From contig CASFLC010000131.1 of NCBI GenBank assembly GCA_949295475.1, positions 1 through 51,780 on the forward strand: a stretch of DNA of 51,780 nt, in the 5' to 3' direction. The notes beneath the pieces were generated by a model. That model did no database searches, was not told where the DNA came from, and was given only the letters and a program-made list of their open reading frames with translations. Positions 1,145 through 8,281 of the stretch are shown here, one piece after another (the stretch's first letter is position 1; the number at the start of each line of letters is the position of its first letter). This stretch comes from an uncultured Pseudomonadota bacterium (GTDB lineage Bacteria; Pseudomonadota; Alphaproteobacteria; RF32; CAG-239). The translations under genes were made by a program, and so were the position numbers.

Positions 1145-3820
1145 ATGACAACCACTGTTAAACAAATCAGAAGCACTTTTCTGAATTACTTTGAAAAGCA
1201 CGGGCACAAGGTTGTTCCGTCTTCTTCTTTGGTGCCGGACAATGATCCGACGCTGATGTTTACCAACTCCGGCATGGTTCAGTTTAAGAACATTCTGGCC
1301 GGCAACGAAATCCGCGACTACACCCGCGCCACAACCTCCCAAAAATCAGTACGGGCCGGCGGCAAGCACAACGATCTTGACAGCGTCGGCTACGACGTCC
1401 GTCATCATACTTTCTTTGAAATGCTGGGCAACTTTTCTTTCGGCGACTATTTCAAAGACGACGCCATTTTCTTTGCTTGGGAACTGCTGACCAAAGAGTT
1501 TGACATTCCCAAGGAAAAACTGGCTGTCACCATTTATCATAACGACGACGAAGCCTATAGTATCTGGAAAAAAGTTTCCGGCCTGCCCGACGAACGGATT
1601 ATCCGCATTGCCACCAAAGACAACTTCTGGCAAATGGGCGACACCGGGCCCTGCGGCCCCTGTTCCGAAATCTTTTACGACCACGGTCCCGAAGTCTGGG
1701 GCGGTCTGCCCGGCACGCCGGAGGAAGACGGCGACCGCTGGATTGAAATCTGGAATTTGGTTTTTGACCAGTTTGAAGACCTGCCGGACGGCTCCCGCAT
1801 TCCGCTGAAACGCCCGTCGATTGACACCGGCATGGGGTTGGAGAGAATGTCTGCCATTCTGCAGGGCGTGCACTCCAATTTTGACATTGATATTTTCCGC
1901 CACCTTATCAAAGCGATTGCGGACATTGCCAATTCCGATCCCGAAGGGCCGTTAAAAGCCTCTCACAACGTGATTGCCGACCATCTGCGCTCCACCGCCT
2001 TTTTGATTGCCGACGGCGTTTTGCCTTCCAACGAAGGGCGCGGCTATGTTTTGCGCCGGATTATGCGCCGGGCGATGCGTCACGCCTACATGCTGGGCGT
2101 CAACGAACCGATGATGTACAAGCTCATCCCCACCCTGCAGCAGGAAATGGGCGAGGCCTATCCCGAGCTTTACCGCGCCGGAACGCTGATTACCGACACC
2201 ATCAAGCTGGAAGAGCAGCGCTTTTTGAAAACGCTTTCCAAAGGCATGCACCTGCTGGAGGACGAAATTTCGGCCTCAGGCCTTGGCAATAAGGACAAAT
2301 GGTTTCTTGACGGCGAAAAAGCCTTTAAACTCTATGACACTTATGGTTTTCCGTTGGATCTGACCGAAGATATTCTCCGTCAGAAAGGCTTGTCCGTCGA
2401 TGTGGAAGGATTTAACCGCGCCATGGAGCGCCAAAAGGCCGAAGCGCGCAAAAACTGGGCCGGTTCCGGCGACGCGGGCACCGAAAAAATCTGGTTCGAG
2501 CTGCAAAACAAACTGGCGCCGACCGAATTTCTGGGATATACCACCCTGCGGGCCGACGGACAGATTACCGCGCTGGTTCAAGACGGAAAGGAAGTTTCCG
2601 AGGTCAGCGGCGGTGACTTTTATCTGCTGGCCAATCAGACGCCTTTTTACGGCGAAATGGGCGGCCAGGTCGGCGACAAAGGAATGATTGTCAATGACGC
2701 CTGCGAAATCGAAGTTTCCGACACCAAGAAAAAACTTAACGGCCTCTATGTTCATGTCTGCAAAATGCTCAAAGGCAGCCTTAAGACCGGTGATTTTGCC
2801 AATTTCAGGGTTGATGAAGACAATCGTCACGCCATTGAGGGCAACCATACCGTCACCCACCTGCTCCACAAGGCCCTGCAGCTGAAGTTCGGCAGCAGCG
2901 TCACTCAAAAAGGCTCGCTGGTGGCGGCCGACCGGATGCGCTTTGACATTGCTTATCCCAAGCAAATCAGCGAAGAAGAGCTGCGCGATCTGGAAGATGC
3001 GGTCAACAGGATGATACGCGCCAACTATCCGGTTCACACCGTTTTGATGAGCCATGACGAGGCGATGAACTGCGGCGCCATGGCCTTGTTCGGCGAAAAA
3101 TACGGCGACGAGGTCCGGGTTGTCTGCGTCGGCGACGATGTTTCCAAAGAATTGTGCGGCGGAACGCACGTTAAGCACACCGGCGACATCGGTTATTTCA
3201 ACATTACGTCAGAATCTGCGATTGCAGCGGGGGTTCGCCGTCTGGAATGCGTGACCGGCCATGCCGCCGAAAAATTTACGCAGGACATTGAGGACAAGCT
3301 GCACCGCGTCGGGAATCTTTTAAAATCAAGTTTCAACGACATAGAGGCGCGCGTTAATCAATTACTTGAAGAAAAGAAAAAGCTTGAAGCTCAGGTTTTC
3401 GACCTCAAGAAAAAGCTGGTCAGCAACAAAACCGCCGACAATCAGGACAAAATCGAAACCATCAACGGCATCAAGTTCGTCGGCAAGGTTTTGGAAGATA
3501 TTCCGGCAAAAGAACTGAAAGCTTTTGTTGATGAAATTAAGGAGCAAATCGGTTCCGGCGTCATTGCCCTGTTTTCGGGCAACGAGGGCAAGGCTTCCGT
3601 GGTTATCGGCGTTACCGACGACCTGAAAGACAAAATCTCCGCGGTTGAGCTGATTAAGACCGTGGCTCCGTTTGTCGGCGCCCAGGGCGGCGGCGGCCGT
3701 CCCGACATGGCCCAGACCGGCGGTCCGGACGCAACCCGTCTGGAAGAGGCCTGCGCGGCAATGCGTCAGGAATTAAACATGCGCAATGTTTCAAACATCC
3801 GCGACATTGCAAACATGTAA
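1145..3820 (+). CDS. alaS: alanine--tRNA ligase
   Basis: 891-aa ORF with class II AlaRS signatures: FTNSGMVQFK, GGKHNDLDSVG, editing-site HTVTHLLH and CGGTHV, and a C-terminal DHHA1-like GGGGRPDMAQ. Confidence 0.97.
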   Translation: MTTTVKQIRSTFLNYFEKHGHKVVPSSSLVPDNDPTLMFTNSGMVQFKNILAGNEIRDYTRATTSQKSVRAGGKHNDLDSVGYDVRHHTFFEMLGNFSFGDYFKDDAIFFAWELLTKEFDIPKEKLAVTIYHNDDEAYSIWKKVSGLPDERIIRIATKDNFWQMGDTGPCGPCSEIFYDHGPEVWGGLPGTPEEDGDRWIEIWNLVFDQFEDLPDGSRIPLKRPSIDTGMGLERMSAILQGVHSNFDIDIFRHLIKAIADIANSDPEGPLKASHNVIADHLRSTAFLIADGVLPSNEGRGYVLRRIMRRAMRHAYMLGVNEPMMYKLIPTLQQEMGEAYPELYRAGTLITDTIKLEEQRFLKTLSKGMHLLEDEISASGLGNKDKWFLDGEKAFKLYDTYGFPLDLTEDILRQKGLSVDVEGFNRAMERQKAEARKNWAGSGDAGTEKIWFELQNKLAPTEFLGYTTLRADGQITALVQDGKEVSEVSGGDFYLLANQTPFYGEMGGQVGDKGMIVNDACEIEVSDTKKKLNGLYVHVCKMLKGSLKTGDFANFRVDEDNRHAIEGNHTVTHLLHKALQLKFGSSVTQKGSLVAADRMRFDIAYPKQISEEELRDLEDAVNRMIRANYPVHTVLMSHDEAMNCGAMALFGEKYGDEVRVVCVGDDVSKELCGGTHVKHTGDIGYFNITSESAIAAGVRRLECVTGHAAEKFTQDIEDKLHRVGNLLKSSFNDIEARVNQLLEEKKKLEAQVFDLKKKLVSNKTADNQDKIETINGIKFVGKVLEDIPAKELKAFVDEIKEQIGSGVIALFSGNEGKASVVIGVTDDLKDKISAVELIKTVAPFVGAQGGGGRPDMAQTGGPDATRLEEACAAMRQELNMRNVSNIRDIANM

Positions 3821-3890: not shown

Positions 3891-5156
3891 TCAAAAGATA
3901 TCGCCGCCCTCTTCCACCGGAATTTTATTGCGCATCAGGCGAAGATATTTAACCCGCGTGGTCCAGTTTTTTTTCAAAACGATTTTTTTGGCACTGCCGT
4001 AAGTGTAAATCAGCTTCCACCAGCGGTCCGAAATGTTTTTCCACAACATTTTGCGGCGGATTTTATAAGTGCTGTAATGCAGCATAAATCCCAGATAAGA
4101 ATTGATGCTGGAAACAAAATGCTCGGCCTGCTCGGCATAAGCGGCATTTTTGGCGGCCACGGCGTTGAACGTTTCAATCTTCCGATACAAATTTCCCTTG
4201 GTGCGGTTGGCAATATAAACGCGCCCCGGCTTAACCACCGCGCCGATAAATTTGACGCCCTTGCTGAAATGCTGCAGATACACTTTGCGCGGATGCAGTC
4301 TCAGCCCGAGTTTTTCGGCAATAAAGCGGCGCAGCTTGTCCTGAATTTTTATCAAAAACTGCTTGTCCGGGTGCACAATCACAAAGTCATCGACATACCG
4401 CCCGTAATATTTGACCTTGAGCTCGTTTTTGACATACTTGTCAAAGGCGTCCATATAAAAGTTGGCAAAAATCTGGGATGACAAATTGCCTATCGGCAGC
4501 CCGTGCAGATTATCCGCCTTAAACAGGCTTTTGGAGGCGGGCAGCCCGTCCCAGTTGCTGCGTTTGCCCTTAATGTTGCAGTTTTGCTGCGGGCAATGAT
4601 AAACGATAATCTTCACCAGGCCGAGAATAACCTCCTTATCCACGGCGTGATAATATCGGCGGATAAACTTCTCCAGCCGCTTATACAGAATATCTTTGTT
4701 TATGCTCATAAAAAAAGACTGGATATCCATTTTGAGAATATAGCAGTCTTTTTGATAATTTTCGGAACACTCGCGGACAAACTCCTCAATCCGCCGCACG
4801 CCGTACATCGTTCCCTTGCCGGCCCGGCAGCTATAGCTGTCGCGGATAAACAGCGCCTCAAACAAAGGCATCAGCTTATTAATCACCAGATGATGCACGA
4901 TACGGTCGCGAAAATCGGCGGCAAAAATCTCTCTTTTGACCGGTTTGTTGACAATAAAAGCGATGGATTTTCCCGGATAATAGGTCTGGTTGTTAATCTG
5001 GCGCCACAGTTCTATCAGGCGATGTTCAAAATCCCCCTCAAACTCCAGAGCGTTAAACGTTTTGCGTTTGTTGCGCCGACAATCGTAATAAGCGGCAAAC
5101 ATTTCCTCCAGCTTTACGGGCTCGGCATAAGAGGTATCAAATAATTCAAGCTGCAT
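3891..5156 (-). CDS. DGR reverse transcriptase
   Basis: ORF 3891..5225 was trimmed to the first ATG (5156) because the GTG-started extension overlaps TR1. RT motifs present: FRDRIVHHL, SYSCRAGKGT, DIQSFFMSI, LPIGNLSSQIFANFYM (DGR-type I/LGxxxSQ motif 4), YGRYVDDFVIV, GVKFIGAVV. Confidence 0.9.
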   Translation of the reverse strand: MQLELFDTSYAEPVKLEEMFAAYYDCRRNKRKTFNALEFEGDFEHRLIELWRQINNQTYYPGKSIAFIVNKPVKREIFAADFRDRIVHHLVINKLMPLFEALFIRDSYSCRAGKGTMYGVRRIEEFVRECSENYQKDCYILKMDIQSFFMSINKDILYKRLEKFIRRYYHAVDKEVILGLVKIIVYHCPQQNCNIKGKRSNWDGLPASKSLFKADNLHGLPIGNLSSQIFANFYMDAFDKYVKNELKVKYYGRYVDDFVIVHPDKQFLIKIQDKLRRFIAEKLGLRLHPRKVYLQHFSKGVKFIGAVVKPGRVYIANRTKGNLYRKIETFNAVAAKNAAYAEQAEHFVSSINSYLGFMLHYSTYKIRRKMLWKNISDRWWKLIYTYGSAKKIVLKKNWTTRVKYLRLMRNKIPVEEGGDIF

Positions 5157-5215
5157 AGCACACCAACAAAGCCAATGACCGGGATTACCCTTTTTGTTCA
5201 ATTTTATTTCCAAGA

Positions 5216-5331
5216 GCGAGGACACAACGAACGCGGTTATTGTTGTTGTTCTTATTGTTGTTGTTCATATCGCCGTCGGACGGTCTCACAACCCACGCGT
5301 TGTTGTTGTTATTGTTCTCGGACGAAGACCA
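5216..5331 (-). repeat. DGR template repeat TR1 (RT-proximal)
   Basis: The coding strand would encode WSSSENNNNNNAWVVRPSDGDMNNNNKNNNNNRVRCVLA. It is collinear with VR 6637-6688, with 7 mismatches, all at TR adenines. Confidence 0.85.
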
Positions 5332-5483
5332 ACCATACAATCCTGACTGCCCGTTTTGGTCTTAACAACCGCGCTTTGCGGCTGTCGGCAGTCCTTTTGA
5401 AAATAAAACATGCTCGCTCCGTACGGCCGTAACCATACGAATTCCGGCAAAAATGCTGCTTTTGTTTAACTTTACTTCCAAGA

Positions 5484-5600
5484 GCGAGGACACAACGAAC
5501 GCGGTTACTGTTATTCTTATTGTTGTTGTTGTTGTTCATGTTGCCGTCGGACGGTCTGACGTTCCAGGCGTTATTGTTATTGTACTCGGACGAAGACCAG
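5484..5600 (-). repeat. DGR template repeat TR2 (avd-proximal)
   Basis: The coding strand would encode WSSSEYNNNNAWNVRPSDGNMNNNNNNKNNSNRVRCVLA. It is collinear with VR 6570-6643, with 13 mismatches, all at TR adenines. Confidence 0.85.
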
Positions 5601-5779
5601 ACGCACAATCCTGACTGCCCGTTTTGGTCTTAACAACCGCCTTCTGCGGCTGTCGGCAGTCCTTTTAAAAGTAAAATATGCTCGCTCCGTACGGCCGTAA
5701 CCGTACGAATTCCGGCAAAACTGTTTTTTGTCGCAGCGTTTCGGACGCTTCTCAAAAAAATAACGGCCGCAGGCGGTTT

Positions 5780-6121
5780 TTATTTGCCCCTGTTTTTCCA
5801 AGCGGTTATCTGCTTGCCGATGCTGTCGGTAATCAGCGCTATCTCGGCCATTTTTTTATACGATAATAATTTGAGGTCCAGGCAGACTCTTATTTGCAGC
5901 TTCAACAGCTCAAAATCATCCAGAAACGCGTCCAGAAATTCCCGTTTGTCCTGATTTTTGTTTGCCCGATACAAGTTGCGAAACAGCGAAAGCGTATCTC
6001 TGCGCATGTCCTGCCCCAAACTGAACTTGTACTCGCGGGAAAACGTATTGGTGACTTTGTAAATCTCCAACAGCAAACGATAACTGTCACGATAAACCGG
6101 TAATTCACTGTATATGGCCAC
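5780..6121 (-). CDS. avd: Avd-like accessory variability determinant (small basic helical protein)
   Basis: 113-aa ORF with a GTG start, in the canonical Avd position between target and TR. It is basic and predicted helical, in the size range of four-helix-bundle Avd / 23S-rRNA-IVS family proteins. Assigned mainly by position. Confidence 0.7.
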   Translation of the reverse strand: MAIYSELPVYRDSYRLLLEIYKVTNTFSREYKFSLGQDMRRDTLSLFRNLYRANKNQDKREFLDAFLDDFELLKLQIRVCLDLKLLSYKKMAEIALITDSIGKQITAWKNRGK

Positions 6122-6164
6122 GCTGCCCGTCCTTTGTTTTTTGGTTTATGGTAATCCCGGCACA

Positions 6165-6223
6165 ATTATACACTGTGCACCCGAAACGTTTATTCTTATA
6201 TAAAATGTTTGTTTAAGTTGCAA
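6165..6223 (-). promoter_or_regulatory. candidate promoters for avd-TR-RT
   Basis: On the minus strand: TTGCAA (6223-6218)-N17-TATAAG (6200-6195), and an extended -10 TGTATAAT (6172-6165) about 40 nt upstream of the avd GTG. Confidence 0.3.
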
Positions 6224-6246
6224 CCCTCTTTCTTAATTTATCCACA

Positions 6247-6404
6247 CCCACACGGTGGGAGCGAAAACTGGCTGCCTAAATAGCCTTTAAGTGGGCGCGC
6301 GATGCTTTTTCGGGACTGCCGTTTCTCCGTGCCTGATGTCTACCACCCAGCGGGTGGAGGCAAGATCTAAGCGGAGGCGGAGGGGATTCCACTTTTCTGC
6401 AGAT
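6247..6404. repeat. conserved element, copy A (unknown function)
   Basis: Hairpin 6247-6259, block 1 6266-6301 (aactggctgcctaaatagcctttaagtgggcgcgcg), hairpin 6343-6357 with loop agc, block 2 6367-6374 (ctaagcgg), block 3 6384-6404 (ggattccacttttctgcagat). Homologous to copy B at 8486-8602. Confidence 0.6.
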
Positions 6405-6468
6405 TTGATGCCGATTGACGGAATAATCTTTAAGCGGCTGCGGTTTGTTTTTTCAAAGCCGCAAAACG

Positions 6469-6496
6469 CCGCCTTCAAGCTAAAGCTTGAAGGCGG
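6469..6496. other. perfect 13-bp-arm inverted repeat
   Basis: ccgccttcaagct aa agcttgaaggcgg, lying between the target stop codon and element A. Confidence 0.6.
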
Positions 6497-6511
6497 AAGG
6501 CAGAAAAAAAT

Positions 6512-6543
6512 TTTACCTCTCGCGGCAAGCCGCGAGAGGTAAA
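6512..6543 (-). terminator. GC-rich hairpin 3' of VR (target-gene terminator and/or DGR target-recognition hairpin)
   Basis: acctctcgcgg caag ccgcgagaggt, extended by 3 A-T pairs. It lies 22 nt past the stop codon and is followed on the minus strand by aaaattttttt. Confidence 0.55.
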
Positions 6544-6562
6544 TAGTTGAAGGGATAAATAG

Positions 6563-7351
6563 TTAAAAAGCGAGGACACAACGAACGCGGTAACTGCCAA
6601 GCTTATTGTAGTTGCTGGCGTACATGCCGCCGCCGGACGGTCTCACAACCCACGCGTAGGTGTAGCTACTGAGCTCGGACGAAGACCAGTAATAAGCATT
6701 TTGAAGTTGCGTCTTCGACAATTTTTGAAGCCCTAAGTTAATAGCCCCATAACTGAAGTTCATCACATACAGCTCTCCGGCTGCCGGTAAATACCACCCG
6801 CTGCTGCCTTTACCGCTTGAGACAGGCTTATAAGTATTACAGTATTCTGCTGCCGGATAGCTATTGCTACTGCTGTAATTTACAATACATGAAGTATTCG
6901 TCGCACCTCTGAAATCTGTTTGTGCTTCTGCCGTACTACTATAATCTGTTAAACACGATAAATTCTCATAACTCGGAGTAGACCATCTCAAAGTCGAGCT
7001 ACTCTCCTCCAACGCCACCGCAAATCTCGTCGAACCGGCAACATAAGCCACTATACCGACCGGGGTCTTGCTCGGAATAACACTGTCCGATACCGTTCCA
7101 TCAGAATACAGAATCGATCCGGGTGCCGCTCCGGCCGCAGAATCTCCCGCCTCCACGCAGAAATATTTGCTGCTGTCAAACGGACAGACCAGACTTTCCA
7201 TGCCGTCGCAATCCGATGCCGATTTCTTATACCCCAATTCCGCACATCTGGTCGAACTCGTACAGTTCTGCGCCAGAACCGGCGTCATCGCCGTGCTGCA
7301 CAGCAGTAATGCCGCTATTACCGTTTTCATCGTCTTTATCCGCTTTCTCAT
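6563..7351 (-). CDS. DGR target: secreted DUF1566 / C-type-lectin-fold-like protein with C-terminal variable region
   Basis: 262 aa. Signal peptide (MKTVIAALLLCSTAMTPVLA), a Cys-rich N-terminal stalk, WYLPAAGEL and YYWSSSE...RVRCVLAF motifs typical of DUF1566-type DGR targets. The last ~40 codons are the VR. Confidence 0.85.
   Translation of the reverse strand: MRKRIKTMKTVIAALLLCSTAMTPVLAQNCTSSTRCAELGYKKSASDCDGMESLVCPFDSSKYFCVEAGDSAAGAAPGSILYSDGTVSDSVIPSKTPVGIVAYVAGSTRFAVALEESSSTLRWSTPSYENLSCLTDYSSTAEAQTDFRGATNTSCIVNYSSSNSYPAAEYCNTYKPVSSGKGSSGWYLPAAGELYVMNFSYGAINLGLQKLSKTQLQNAYYWSSSELSSYTYAWVVRPSGGGMYASNYNKLGSYRVRCVLAF
6570..6689 (-). repeat. DGR variable repeat (VR)
   Basis: 120 nt homologous to TR1/TR2. 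Encodes WSSSELSSYTYAWVVRPSGGGMYASNYNKLGSYRVRCVLA. The adenine-free 22-nt 3' end is identical to both TRs. Confidence 0.9.
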
Positions 7352-7396
7352 CGCTCTTCTCCCTTCTTCTTTAAGTTGACCGATTTCTGCCGCTCG

Positions 7397-8281
7397 TTAC
7401 AGGCCGCTCCAATAAGCTTCTTCATTAAAGCTGCCTTCAACGCATCCCGTCGCGCAATATTTGCCCGAACATTCCTCGTAACTGCACAGAGTGTTCTCCG
7501 GACAACTGTCCAGCGTGCACTCATACAGACATTTTTTGCAATTGTCATACAAAACCTTGCTGCCGCTCTGACAACTCTTCGACCCTATCTCCGCACCGTA
7601 CCGGCATTCACTGAACCCCTCGCACGGGTTTATCTCTATCTTGTACTTTGTGCCCGTGCAGCTCTCGCAACGTTCCGTCTCAATATAGCCTTCCGGGATT
7701 TCTCCGTAATCGTACCCTTCGCACAAATTGCAACAGGTCCCGTAGCTGCTGTCATATCCGCAGCGGCCGTCCAAACTCAGTTGCCACCCTTCCGAACAAC
7801 TCTTGACATAGCCCTCGCAGGCCTCTTCCACGTTTAACTCGCATCTGCTGTACTTGCCGCCGCAGCTGTTACCGCTCGTGTAATACGGCGGCTGACAATT
7901 GTCGTCATCGTACTGATAAACATCCGCACAGCGACAATTGGCATAACAGCGCAAATTCGGAAGCGGTCGTTGCAATGTTCCGCTCGCGCCGCTTTCGCAC
8001 GCAGAAACCATCCCATAATCTTCGCACCGGCGTTCGCCGTCCCCGCCGTCGGACGGGCCGGAAACATCCGGGGCGTTAATGTTGCTGTTGTAAATGTTTT
8101 GATAATCCGGAAGCCAGTATACTTTTGCCGTCCGATACGACTCCCCTTCGTTTGAAAATTCTCGGATATCCGGAGCCAGCCTCAGTGGTGTGTGTTGGTG
8201 TGTGCAATAGGCCGGATGACTATATAAACCGAACAACACTGTTGTAAATGCTGCCATGTACTTCGTGCTCATTCTGCTCAT
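7397..8281 (-). CDS. Cys-rich secreted protein with repeated CEGY/CEGF-type modules (unknown function)
   Basis: 294 aa with a hydrophobic N-terminus. 28 Cys in total, 27 of them in the last ~205 residues. Ends 46 nt upstream of the target gene on the same strand and has a good SD (agaagaagg). Confidence 0.65.
   Translation of the reverse strand: MSRMSTKYMAAFTTVLFGLYSHPAYCTHQHTPLRLAPDIREFSNEGESYRTAKVYWLPDYQNIYNSNINAPDVSGPSDGGDGERRCEDYGMVSACESGASGTLQRPLPNLRCYANCRCADVYQYDDDNCQPPYYTSGNSCGGKYSRCELNVEEACEGYVKSCSEGWQLSLDGRCGYDSSYGTCCNLCEGYDYGEIPEGYIETERCESCTGTKYKIEINPCEGFSECRYGAEIGSKSCQSGSKVLYDNCKKCLYECTLDSCPENTLCSYEECSGKYCATGCVEGSFNEEAYWSGL

Follow-up and report, generated by a model that had tools for sequence, protein, structure and literature searches.

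A chromosomal diversity-generating retroelement from an uncultured gut alphaproteobacterium with a tandem array of template modules and an apparently composite variable repeat

Diversity-generating retroelements (DGRs) are usually described as systems in which one invariant template repeat (TR) feeds one or more variable repeats (VRs), with diversity confined to the adenines of the template. In the present work, we have analyzed a contig of 51,780 nucleotides (nt), referred to below as the window, from an uncultured human-gut alphaproteobacterium that is a sister to 'Proteobacteria bacterium CAG:495'. Its minus strand carries, over positions 3891–8281 and in this order, a cysteine-rich open reading frame (ORF), a target gene, a hairpin, the accessory gene avd, two TRs and a reverse transcriptase (RT) gene (Table 1). 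By every defining feature that the sequence allows to be tested, this element is a genuine chromosomal DGR. The reading that we favor, and that we hold to be probable, is that of an active, chromosomally resident DGR with an array of TR modules, whose VR in the window was put together from two templates, viz. TR_B and TR_A. The DGR itself is ordinary; its multi-template, composite-writing behavior is the new part.

Table 1. Features of the DGR island in the window
Feature	Positions	Strand	Characteristics
DGR reverse transcriptase	3891..5156	-	421 amino acids (aa) from ATG 5156; RVT_1 4.1e-19
Tandem duplication of 268-bp TR module	5212..5723	-	Two copies; 91% identity outside the TR core
TR_B, RT-proximal template, type B	5215..5331	-	117 nt; 6 leading AAY codons; GCG TGG GTT GTG; GAT before ATG; 10 codons after
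Structured element, second copy, 5' of TR_B	5329..5448	-
TR_A, avd-proximal template, type A	5483..5600	-	118 nt; 5 leading AAY codons; GCC TGG AAC GTC; AAC before ATG; 11 codons after
Structured element 5' of TR_A	5597..5716	-	About 120 nt; GCCGGAATTCG...TGG
avd accessory gene	5780..6121	-	113 aa; bAvd 5.7e-18; between target and TRs
GC-rich terminator-like hairpin and T run	6512..6543	-	14-pair stem; perfect 15-nt inverted repeat
Target gene	6563..7351	-	262-aa secreted protein; Lcl_C 8.1e-10, above gathering score
VR	6569-6689	-	121 nt, longer than either TR
Adenine-free 3' block in VR	6569..6590	-	CCGCGTTCGTTGTGTCCTCGCT; 22 nt, exact in VR and both TRs
VR 3' segment, putatively from TR_A	6591..6628	-	GGC ATG and 11 codons, AAT AAG at codons 6-7
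A-poor central block	6629..6643	-	AGACCGTCCGGCGGC; common to all TR types; holds the template junction
VR 5' segment, putatively from TR_B	6644..6673	-	6 codons and GCG TGG GTT GTG
Cysteine-rich secreted ORF	7397..8281	-	294 aa, signal peptide; no Pfam match

The evidence for a composite VR comes from its comparison with the two TRs. The VR has six leading codons, GCG TGG GTT GTG and 11 codons after ATG, a make-up that neither TR has as a whole. Aligned with TR_A alone, it shows 20 mismatches at adenine sites, 5 at other sites and an indel of one codon (3 nt); against TR_B alone, the corresponding figures are 19 and 5, again with a one-codon (3-nt) indel. When the 5' part is compared with TR_B and the 3' part with TR_A, there remain 20 adenine-site changes (of 40 template adenines), no non-adenine mismatch and no indel, and the chance of all 20 mismatches falling on adenine sites is 2.7e-12. 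An earlier reading of this DNA, made from the sequence alone (the sequence-only reading), had held that the VR differs from its templates only where these have adenine; because of the five non-adenine mismatches and the codon indel this fails for each TR taken singly, and in a computed alignment it stands only against the TR_B/TR_A composite. Taken by segment, the 5' part has no non-adenine mismatches to TR_B and a cost of 6 to TR_A, while the 3' part has none to TR_A and a cost of 5 to TR_B. The TR_B markers end with GTG at 6644-6646, and those of TR_A set in with the C of GGC at 6626; the interval between them is the A-poor block AGACCGTCCGRCGGC, which is common to all TRs. We interpret the window VR as a composite, whose 5' part would come from TR_B and whose 3' part from TR_A, joined within AGACCGTCCGRCGGC.

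The 5' block TGGTCTTCGTCCGAG is identical in the VR, TR_A and TR_B, and the 5' and 3' shared blocks are each present in exactly three copies in the window, where 0 to 0.06 are expected. The adenine-free 3' block with an abrupt end of homology, to which the sequence-only reading had drawn attention, was recovered as three exact copies with none expected by chance, and homology stops right past it (TTTTAA in the VR versus CTTGGAA in the TRs). In these respects it resembles the initiation of mutagenic homing (IMH) sequence in the VR and its counterpart IMH* in the TRs. In the sister species, the first codon of this block is CGC in one TR and CCA in the other, and VRs show either marker; therefore transfer reaches that codon and its boundary falls somewhere in the last 18 nt. 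In this species (L018, L026, L027, L032, L033, L038, and L041), the upstream TR reads AAA CCA GTT and the other TR AAC CGC GTT.

Composite VRs are also found beyond the window. Our conspecific comparisons were based on the metagenome-assembled genome (MAG) GCA_944389095.1 (E27__bin196) and on other contigs that carry the exact Avd protein, which is encoded on 10 contigs from public assemblies; one of these, the ENA contig L001, also encodes a protein identical to the window RT. Three TR types, in the order avd-C-A-B-RT, are present in the species, and the window and L001 carry types A and B. A census of conspecific VRs identified 18 distinct sequences, consisting of 10 of a single type (7 A, 2 B, and 1 C) and 8 composites. 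Half of the latter are clean, i.e., they have a cost of 0 as composites, as opposed to 3 or more with each TR taken singly (viz. the B5'/A3' VRs of the window and L053, the A5'/C3' cis VR of E27 and the A5'/B3' cis VR of L004), and the other four are probable. Four orientation classes were seen (B/A, A/C, A/B, and B/C), with the central A-poor block inside every junction interval. A template-switch model with a fixed 'one-unit slip' was ruled out because all four of these classes occur. Typing at the protein level of 120 homologous targets, which is informative for few close relatives only and is confounded in that it spans several species whose TRs differ, assigned P0009 to type B alone, P0010 to type C alone and P0011 to a B/A composite. 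A search for pairs with one VR half in common gave P0021 and P0025, in which the 5' half of the VR is identical and the 3' half differs throughout, and the two genes lie at separate loci with the shared patch flanked by divergent sequence; this pair does not discriminate partial homing from recombination.

A route to such composites is suggested by the Bordetella phage element BPP-1, where information transfer begins in the conserved 3' block beside the hairpin, where 5' integration of complementary DNA (cDNA) needs only at least 8 bp of TR/VR identity and where integration can occur at cryptic internal sites, possibly by template switch (PMC3240598). By analogy with BPP-1, avd, the TR modules and the RT gene would be transcribed from the minus strand, RT and Avd would copy TR RNA into cDNA with misincorporation at template adenines, and the cDNA would replace the VR at the 3' end of the secreted Lcl_C/C-type-lectin gene. 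Entry of the cDNA would take place at the adenine-free 3' block by the hairpin, and its 5' end would be resolved via short homology. Most likely, the window VR would then have been written by homing from TR_B, at first over its full length, and later rewritten in part from TR_A by a 3'-anchored event, the 5' end of which was resolved at AGACCGTCCGRCGGC, the only long A-poor stretch within the repeat; a jump of the RT between TR RNAs at the central block would be an equivalent alternative. By either path, a single RT could use the array to place several frameworks and loop lengths, singly or combined, in many paralogous targets.

The sequence-only reading had described two AAY-rich template repeats, and both are indeed present, within the 268-bp tandem duplication. 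Each module consists of a 5' RNA element, a TR and about 25 nt of 3' flank, and the number of modules varies among conspecific strains. In L001-L008, avd and the RT gene lie 355, about 622 or about 889 nt apart, a gap that fits one, two or three modules, respectively. Three modules are present in L002, L004, L005, and L007 (four independent assemblies, which differ in sample and assembler) and two in the window and in L001, L006, and L008, which are three independent assemblies. The two TRs of the window thus appear to be one state of a polymorphic array of one to three modules. The one-module contig, L003, holds only TR_B, yet its cis VR is a type-A sequence, the same as in the two-module L006; hence its TR_A module was either lost recently or collapsed in assembly. 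A two-module array with a spacing of about 295 nt is found in the sister species (CAG:495 group), and a relative with a 72%-identical RT has three modules spaced 246 nt apart, with no target next to them, so that multi-module arrays are a trait of this DGR lineage.

These arrays bear on a different explanation of the window VR, namely that it was copied in a single event from a hybrid TR (B5'/A3') that was made by unequal crossing-over and has since been lost. That module copy number varies from one to three and that TR arrays recombine lends this explanation some credence: in the sister species, L035 carries a single hybrid TR with an upstream-type 5' part and a downstream-type 3' part, and L026 a two-copy array with swapped flanks in which both TRs are type-A-like. 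However, a B5'/A3' hybrid is absent among the 9 distinct TR alleles of the species (12 if the sister species is included), it corresponds to the junction of a duplication product rather than to a simple deletion product, and each of the four orientation classes (B/A, A/C, A/B, and B/C) would need a vanished hybrid of its own. We regard this explanation as unlikely.

Comparison of strains also indicates that the composite VR belongs to a working element. Eight distinct cis VR cores were found among nine conspecific sequences (the window and eight contigs). The window and L001 have the same RT and the same TR alleles and are 100% identical over 900 nt downstream of the VR, whereas their VR cores agree at only 60 of 86 aligned positions. 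As the cis VRs vary between near-identical strains, the element is active, and the DGR appears to have been so recently. The cis VR of L001 fits TR_A over its full length with adenine-only changes (cost 0) and is thus wholly TR_A-derived, which makes TR_A a working template; other conspecific VRs trace to type A, B or C alone, and all TR types appear to serve as templates.

The DGR very probably serves many remote paralogous targets as well, so that the island would not be the whole system. A scan of GTDB genomes for a 21-mer of the 3' block identified in the E27 MAG, apart from its three TRs, eight further VR matches on five contigs, and a looser pattern added a ninth. Among these VR 3'-end matches, which number at least nine (L012-L021; GCA_944389095.1 contigs 14, 15, 16, 40, and 54), eight fit a TR type and one (L014) is a degenerate VR keeping the 3' block only; at L021, a stretch of about 1.5 kb of one contig holds a cluster of three VRs. 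No remote target is located inside the window itself. A type-B VR with a cis-type downstream flank was also found on a contig labeled Candidatus Gastranaerophilales (L011, CALUQY010000024.1), which is probably a mis-binned alphaproteobacterial contig, horizontal transfer being a possible alternative.

The target genes are mosaics, in which near-identical blocks alternate with divergent ones, and recombination at conserved blocks seems to shuffle them among loci. Between the window (6700-7351) and L001 (480-1006), the cis targets share only 47% identity over their N-terminal two-thirds (83/175 residues), and the DNA adjoining these divergent targets is 99-100% identical. A composite VR might on this ground be ascribed to gene conversion between paralogous VRs, one written by TR_B and the other by TR_A, with a crossover in the central block. 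Donors of this kind could be supplied by the conspecific genome, where at least nine VR 3'-end matches that do not belong to the cis target have flanking blocks in common; the cis VR of L007 (1-110) is identical to the remote-locus VR at L020 in the E27 MAG, so that VR-bearing segments do move by recombination; and L051 and L052 have the same VR 5' half within divergent flanks. Against this, the shared central block of about 15 nt, mutated in the window VR (GAC to GGC), is short for a RecA-type exchange, and DGR homing is already a known route to partial replacement. Gene conversion seems to us rather improbable as the source of the window VR, and successive or switched copying from TR_B and TR_A remains the reading that we prefer.

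Several observations nevertheless count against this preferred reading, the movement of VR-bearing segments just described being one of them. What is said here of homing, of the sequence of events and of how each TR is used is inferred from end products, and composite VRs could likewise be yielded by a lost hybrid TR or by recombination between paralogous VRs. Several type-B VRs have five leading codons, not six, so that codon slippage or further TR alleles also add length differences. The sequences compared are all metagenome assemblies, the copy number of a 268-bp tandem repeat is prone to mis-assembly, the one-module state is known from the single contig L003, and remote targets are ascribed to this strain from the conspecific MAG, the rest of its own genome lying outside the window. 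In the extreme case, the VR could be a chimera of co-existing variants and the TR number a product of mis-assembly. VR populations can be heterogeneous, and an exact look-up of the target protein gave no record elsewhere, because of which the composite VR of the window has no independent replicate. The stretch at the junction that B- and A-derived VRs have in common is less than 20 nt, too short to give a chimera with the k-mer sizes in common use, and L001, an independent assembly, has the same two TR alleles and spacing. Moreover, two copies are found in four sequences and three copies in as many independent assemblies, and clean composites recur at other loci and in independent assemblies. 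An assembly artifact is accordingly a very remote prospect.

The structured element that precedes each TR is predicted to fold into a first hairpin with a YAHG tetraloop and a long-range stem that encloses a second hairpin. An RNAalifold analysis of eight modules from three species supports 28 pairs, nine of them with compensatory double changes. A scan of positions 5000-6700 against Rfam (E <= 1) returned a chance CrcZ fragment only and no known RNA family. A single-TR relative with a 63%-identical RT retains the second domain of the element. This covarying 5' RNA element, which is duplicated along with each TR, is a candidate recognition module.

The templates themselves differ between strains, and predominantly at adenines. 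Adenine is involved in 16 of 18 variable substitution columns in the TR core and in 10 of 19 in the module flanks. A TR_C allele that is present in two samples (L004:1193-1305 and L007:1154-1266) has nine A-to-N changes and one T-to-C change within 29 nt of its 3' half, and has TAC AGT AAG GGC in common with the cis VR of L004. Similarly, the upstream TR of L027, from the sister species (near minus-strand position 3647), carries six A-to-N changes in 16 nt, and the most upstream module of L045 (3366-3470) is strongly A-depleted. This pattern looks like the occasional overwriting of redundant TR copies by mutagenized cDNA or by VR-to-TR conversion, and, given the adenine-site changes in some TR copies, the protection of TRs may be leaky. 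More tentatively, the TR array could be viewed as an evolving template library, whose modules duplicate, are deleted and recombine within a species and all supply one common set of VRs, from which VRs are written piecewise and whose templates drift by the DGR's own chemistry (TR-to-TR homing or VR-to-TR conversion); we see this as an idea less likely to be right than wrong. If it is true, the library would vary loop length and framework residues beyond what adenine mutagenesis does.

The assignment of the element to the DGR family is supported by its RT. The ORF is open back to GTG 5225, and conspecific gene calls use the 421-aa form. Its translation carries IGNLSSQ (of the motif 4 type [ILV]GxxxSQ) and YVDD, as the sequence-only reading had pointed out, and the profile searches that it had proposed matched the RT to RVT_1 (4e-19) and the target to Lcl_C (8e-10). 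The closest solved relative is the DGR RT (bRT) of the Bordetella phage BPP-1 (8ub7, 3.9e-35); the group II intron RT scores 2.9e-10, with group II and retron RTs spanning 3e-10 to 5e-8, so that the match to bRT is 25 orders of magnitude better. The RT appears from these scores to belong to the DGR clade. An origin from a group II intron or retron, which had been named as one outcome that would undo the DGR assignment, was rejected because of the weaker RT scores and because no Rfam intron or retron family was found in 5000-6700 (E <= 1). The limits given earlier for the RT, avd, target and cysteine-rich ORFs all proved correct.

The DGR is flanked by genes for housekeeping proteins (viz. SfsA, AlaS, Mrp/NUBPL, HflK, HflC, and DegP), and no phage or mobility genes were seen around it in the window. 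With Avd, TR, VR, and a DGR-type RT all present, the earlier view of a complete, chromosomal, non-phage DGR with no adjacent mobility genes is upheld. The GC content of the island is 46-49%, compared with 51-55% for alaS and hflC-degP and 45-47% on the sfsA side. Recent import of the island was not accepted on this basis, as a GC content that is only slightly lower is weak evidence. A scan for sigma-70 promoters gave 8 matches where 6.1 are expected, none of them convincing upstream of avd, and we claim no promoter.

The target protein consists of a signal peptide, a cysteine-containing N-terminal part and an Lcl_C (DUF1566)/C-type-lectin-like C-terminal domain with the VR at its end; the VR stops 6 nt before the stop codon. 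In its AlphaFold model (predicted local distance difference test score 81), the best fold match is the C-terminal domain of Legionella Lcl (8q4e_A; probability 1.00, template modeling score 0.63 on the target), followed by C-type lectin-like proteins. These results are in agreement with the earlier description of a secreted lectin-fold protein, and the target is predicted to have a C-type-lectin-like fold that tolerates variation. Homologs of the target number 273 at E <= 1e-10. Homologs of the cysteine-rich ORF are located directly upstream of target genes in cis loci, remote loci and other species, the sister species included (L001, L002, L022, L027, L032, L037, L041, L048, L052, L053, and L054), which suggests that this ORF and the Lcl_C target form a two-gene cassette. 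The possibility that the cysteine-rich ORF is a decayed paralog of the target was ruled out, as it has no similarity to the target. The hairpin begins 20 nt past the target stop codon and is the strongest terminator-like match in the region; hairpins of a comparable kind are found after most other VRs of the family and after no TR. The target at L051:904-1300 has the cis-type downstream flank without the first hairpin, with recG next instead of avd-TR-RT, suggesting that the DGR core was rearranged or lost in that strain.

In many of its characteristics, this DGR is like that of BPP-1 (avd-TR-brt, with the target mtd). Both have Avd, an RT of the DGR clade, adenine-specific differences between TR and VR, a VR at the 3' end of a gene for a C-type-lectin fold, an adenine-free repeat end with divergence beyond it, and a GC-rich hairpin shortly past the VR, placed as is the hairpin/cruciform needed for BPP-1 homing. 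Unlike the BPP-1 element, the present DGR is chromosomal and not phage-borne, has two TR modules (one to three in the species) instead of one, and very likely has many remote targets; its hairpin has a longer stem and no obvious GRNA tetraloop. About 125–150 nt of structured RNA also intervenes between avd and each TR, with only 58 nt from the last TR to the RT gene, whereas in BPP-1 the long spacer sits downstream of the TR.

Host-chromosomal DGRs that diversify secreted or surface proteins with a C-type-lectin fold are exemplified by that of Legionella pneumophila (LdtA). The Treponema denticola DGR (TvpA and remote targets) resembles ours in the same respects, and in Treponema several non-adjacent targets are served in trans (PMC5758913). 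A single TR has been described for each of these two DGRs, and, unlike theirs, the targets here are Lcl_C proteins of about 250 aa that are paired with a cysteine-rich ORF. The combination of one RT, more than one TR and multiple DUF1566/Lcl_C targets is shared with DGRs recorded in surveys, such as that of Stenotrophomonas sp. About 20% of DGRs with multiple VRs have more than one TR, and Stenotrophomonas SKA14 combines two TRs with six VRs, of which five lie in DUF1566 proteins (PMC6642488); in another study, 53 DGRs that have at least two TRs were listed (PMC11661182). In these surveys the architecture was counted only, and one of them dropped nine sequences with at least two TRs from its cassette analysis. 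Our search of the DGR literature found no account of TR modules in tandem that have an RNA element of their own, of within-species polymorphism in TR copy number or TR-array dynamics, of VRs built from two templates, or of adenine-mutagenized TR copies.

The significance of these results lies in the use of several non-identical tandem templates, which, together with patchwork VRs, would add variation in length and framework to the diversity that the DGR generates. The non-adenine markers of the TRs allow each natural VR to record which template wrote which part of it. The VRs of this lineage thereby provide a natural counterpart of marker co-conversion in BPP-1, and make 3'-to-5' polarity and an internal resolution site testable in metagenomes. 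The TR copies with clustered adenine-site changes call into question how absolute the protection conferred by IMH* is. Lastly, if the 5' RNA element is a recognition module, it could aid in the design of multiplexed DGR-based mutagenesis tools.

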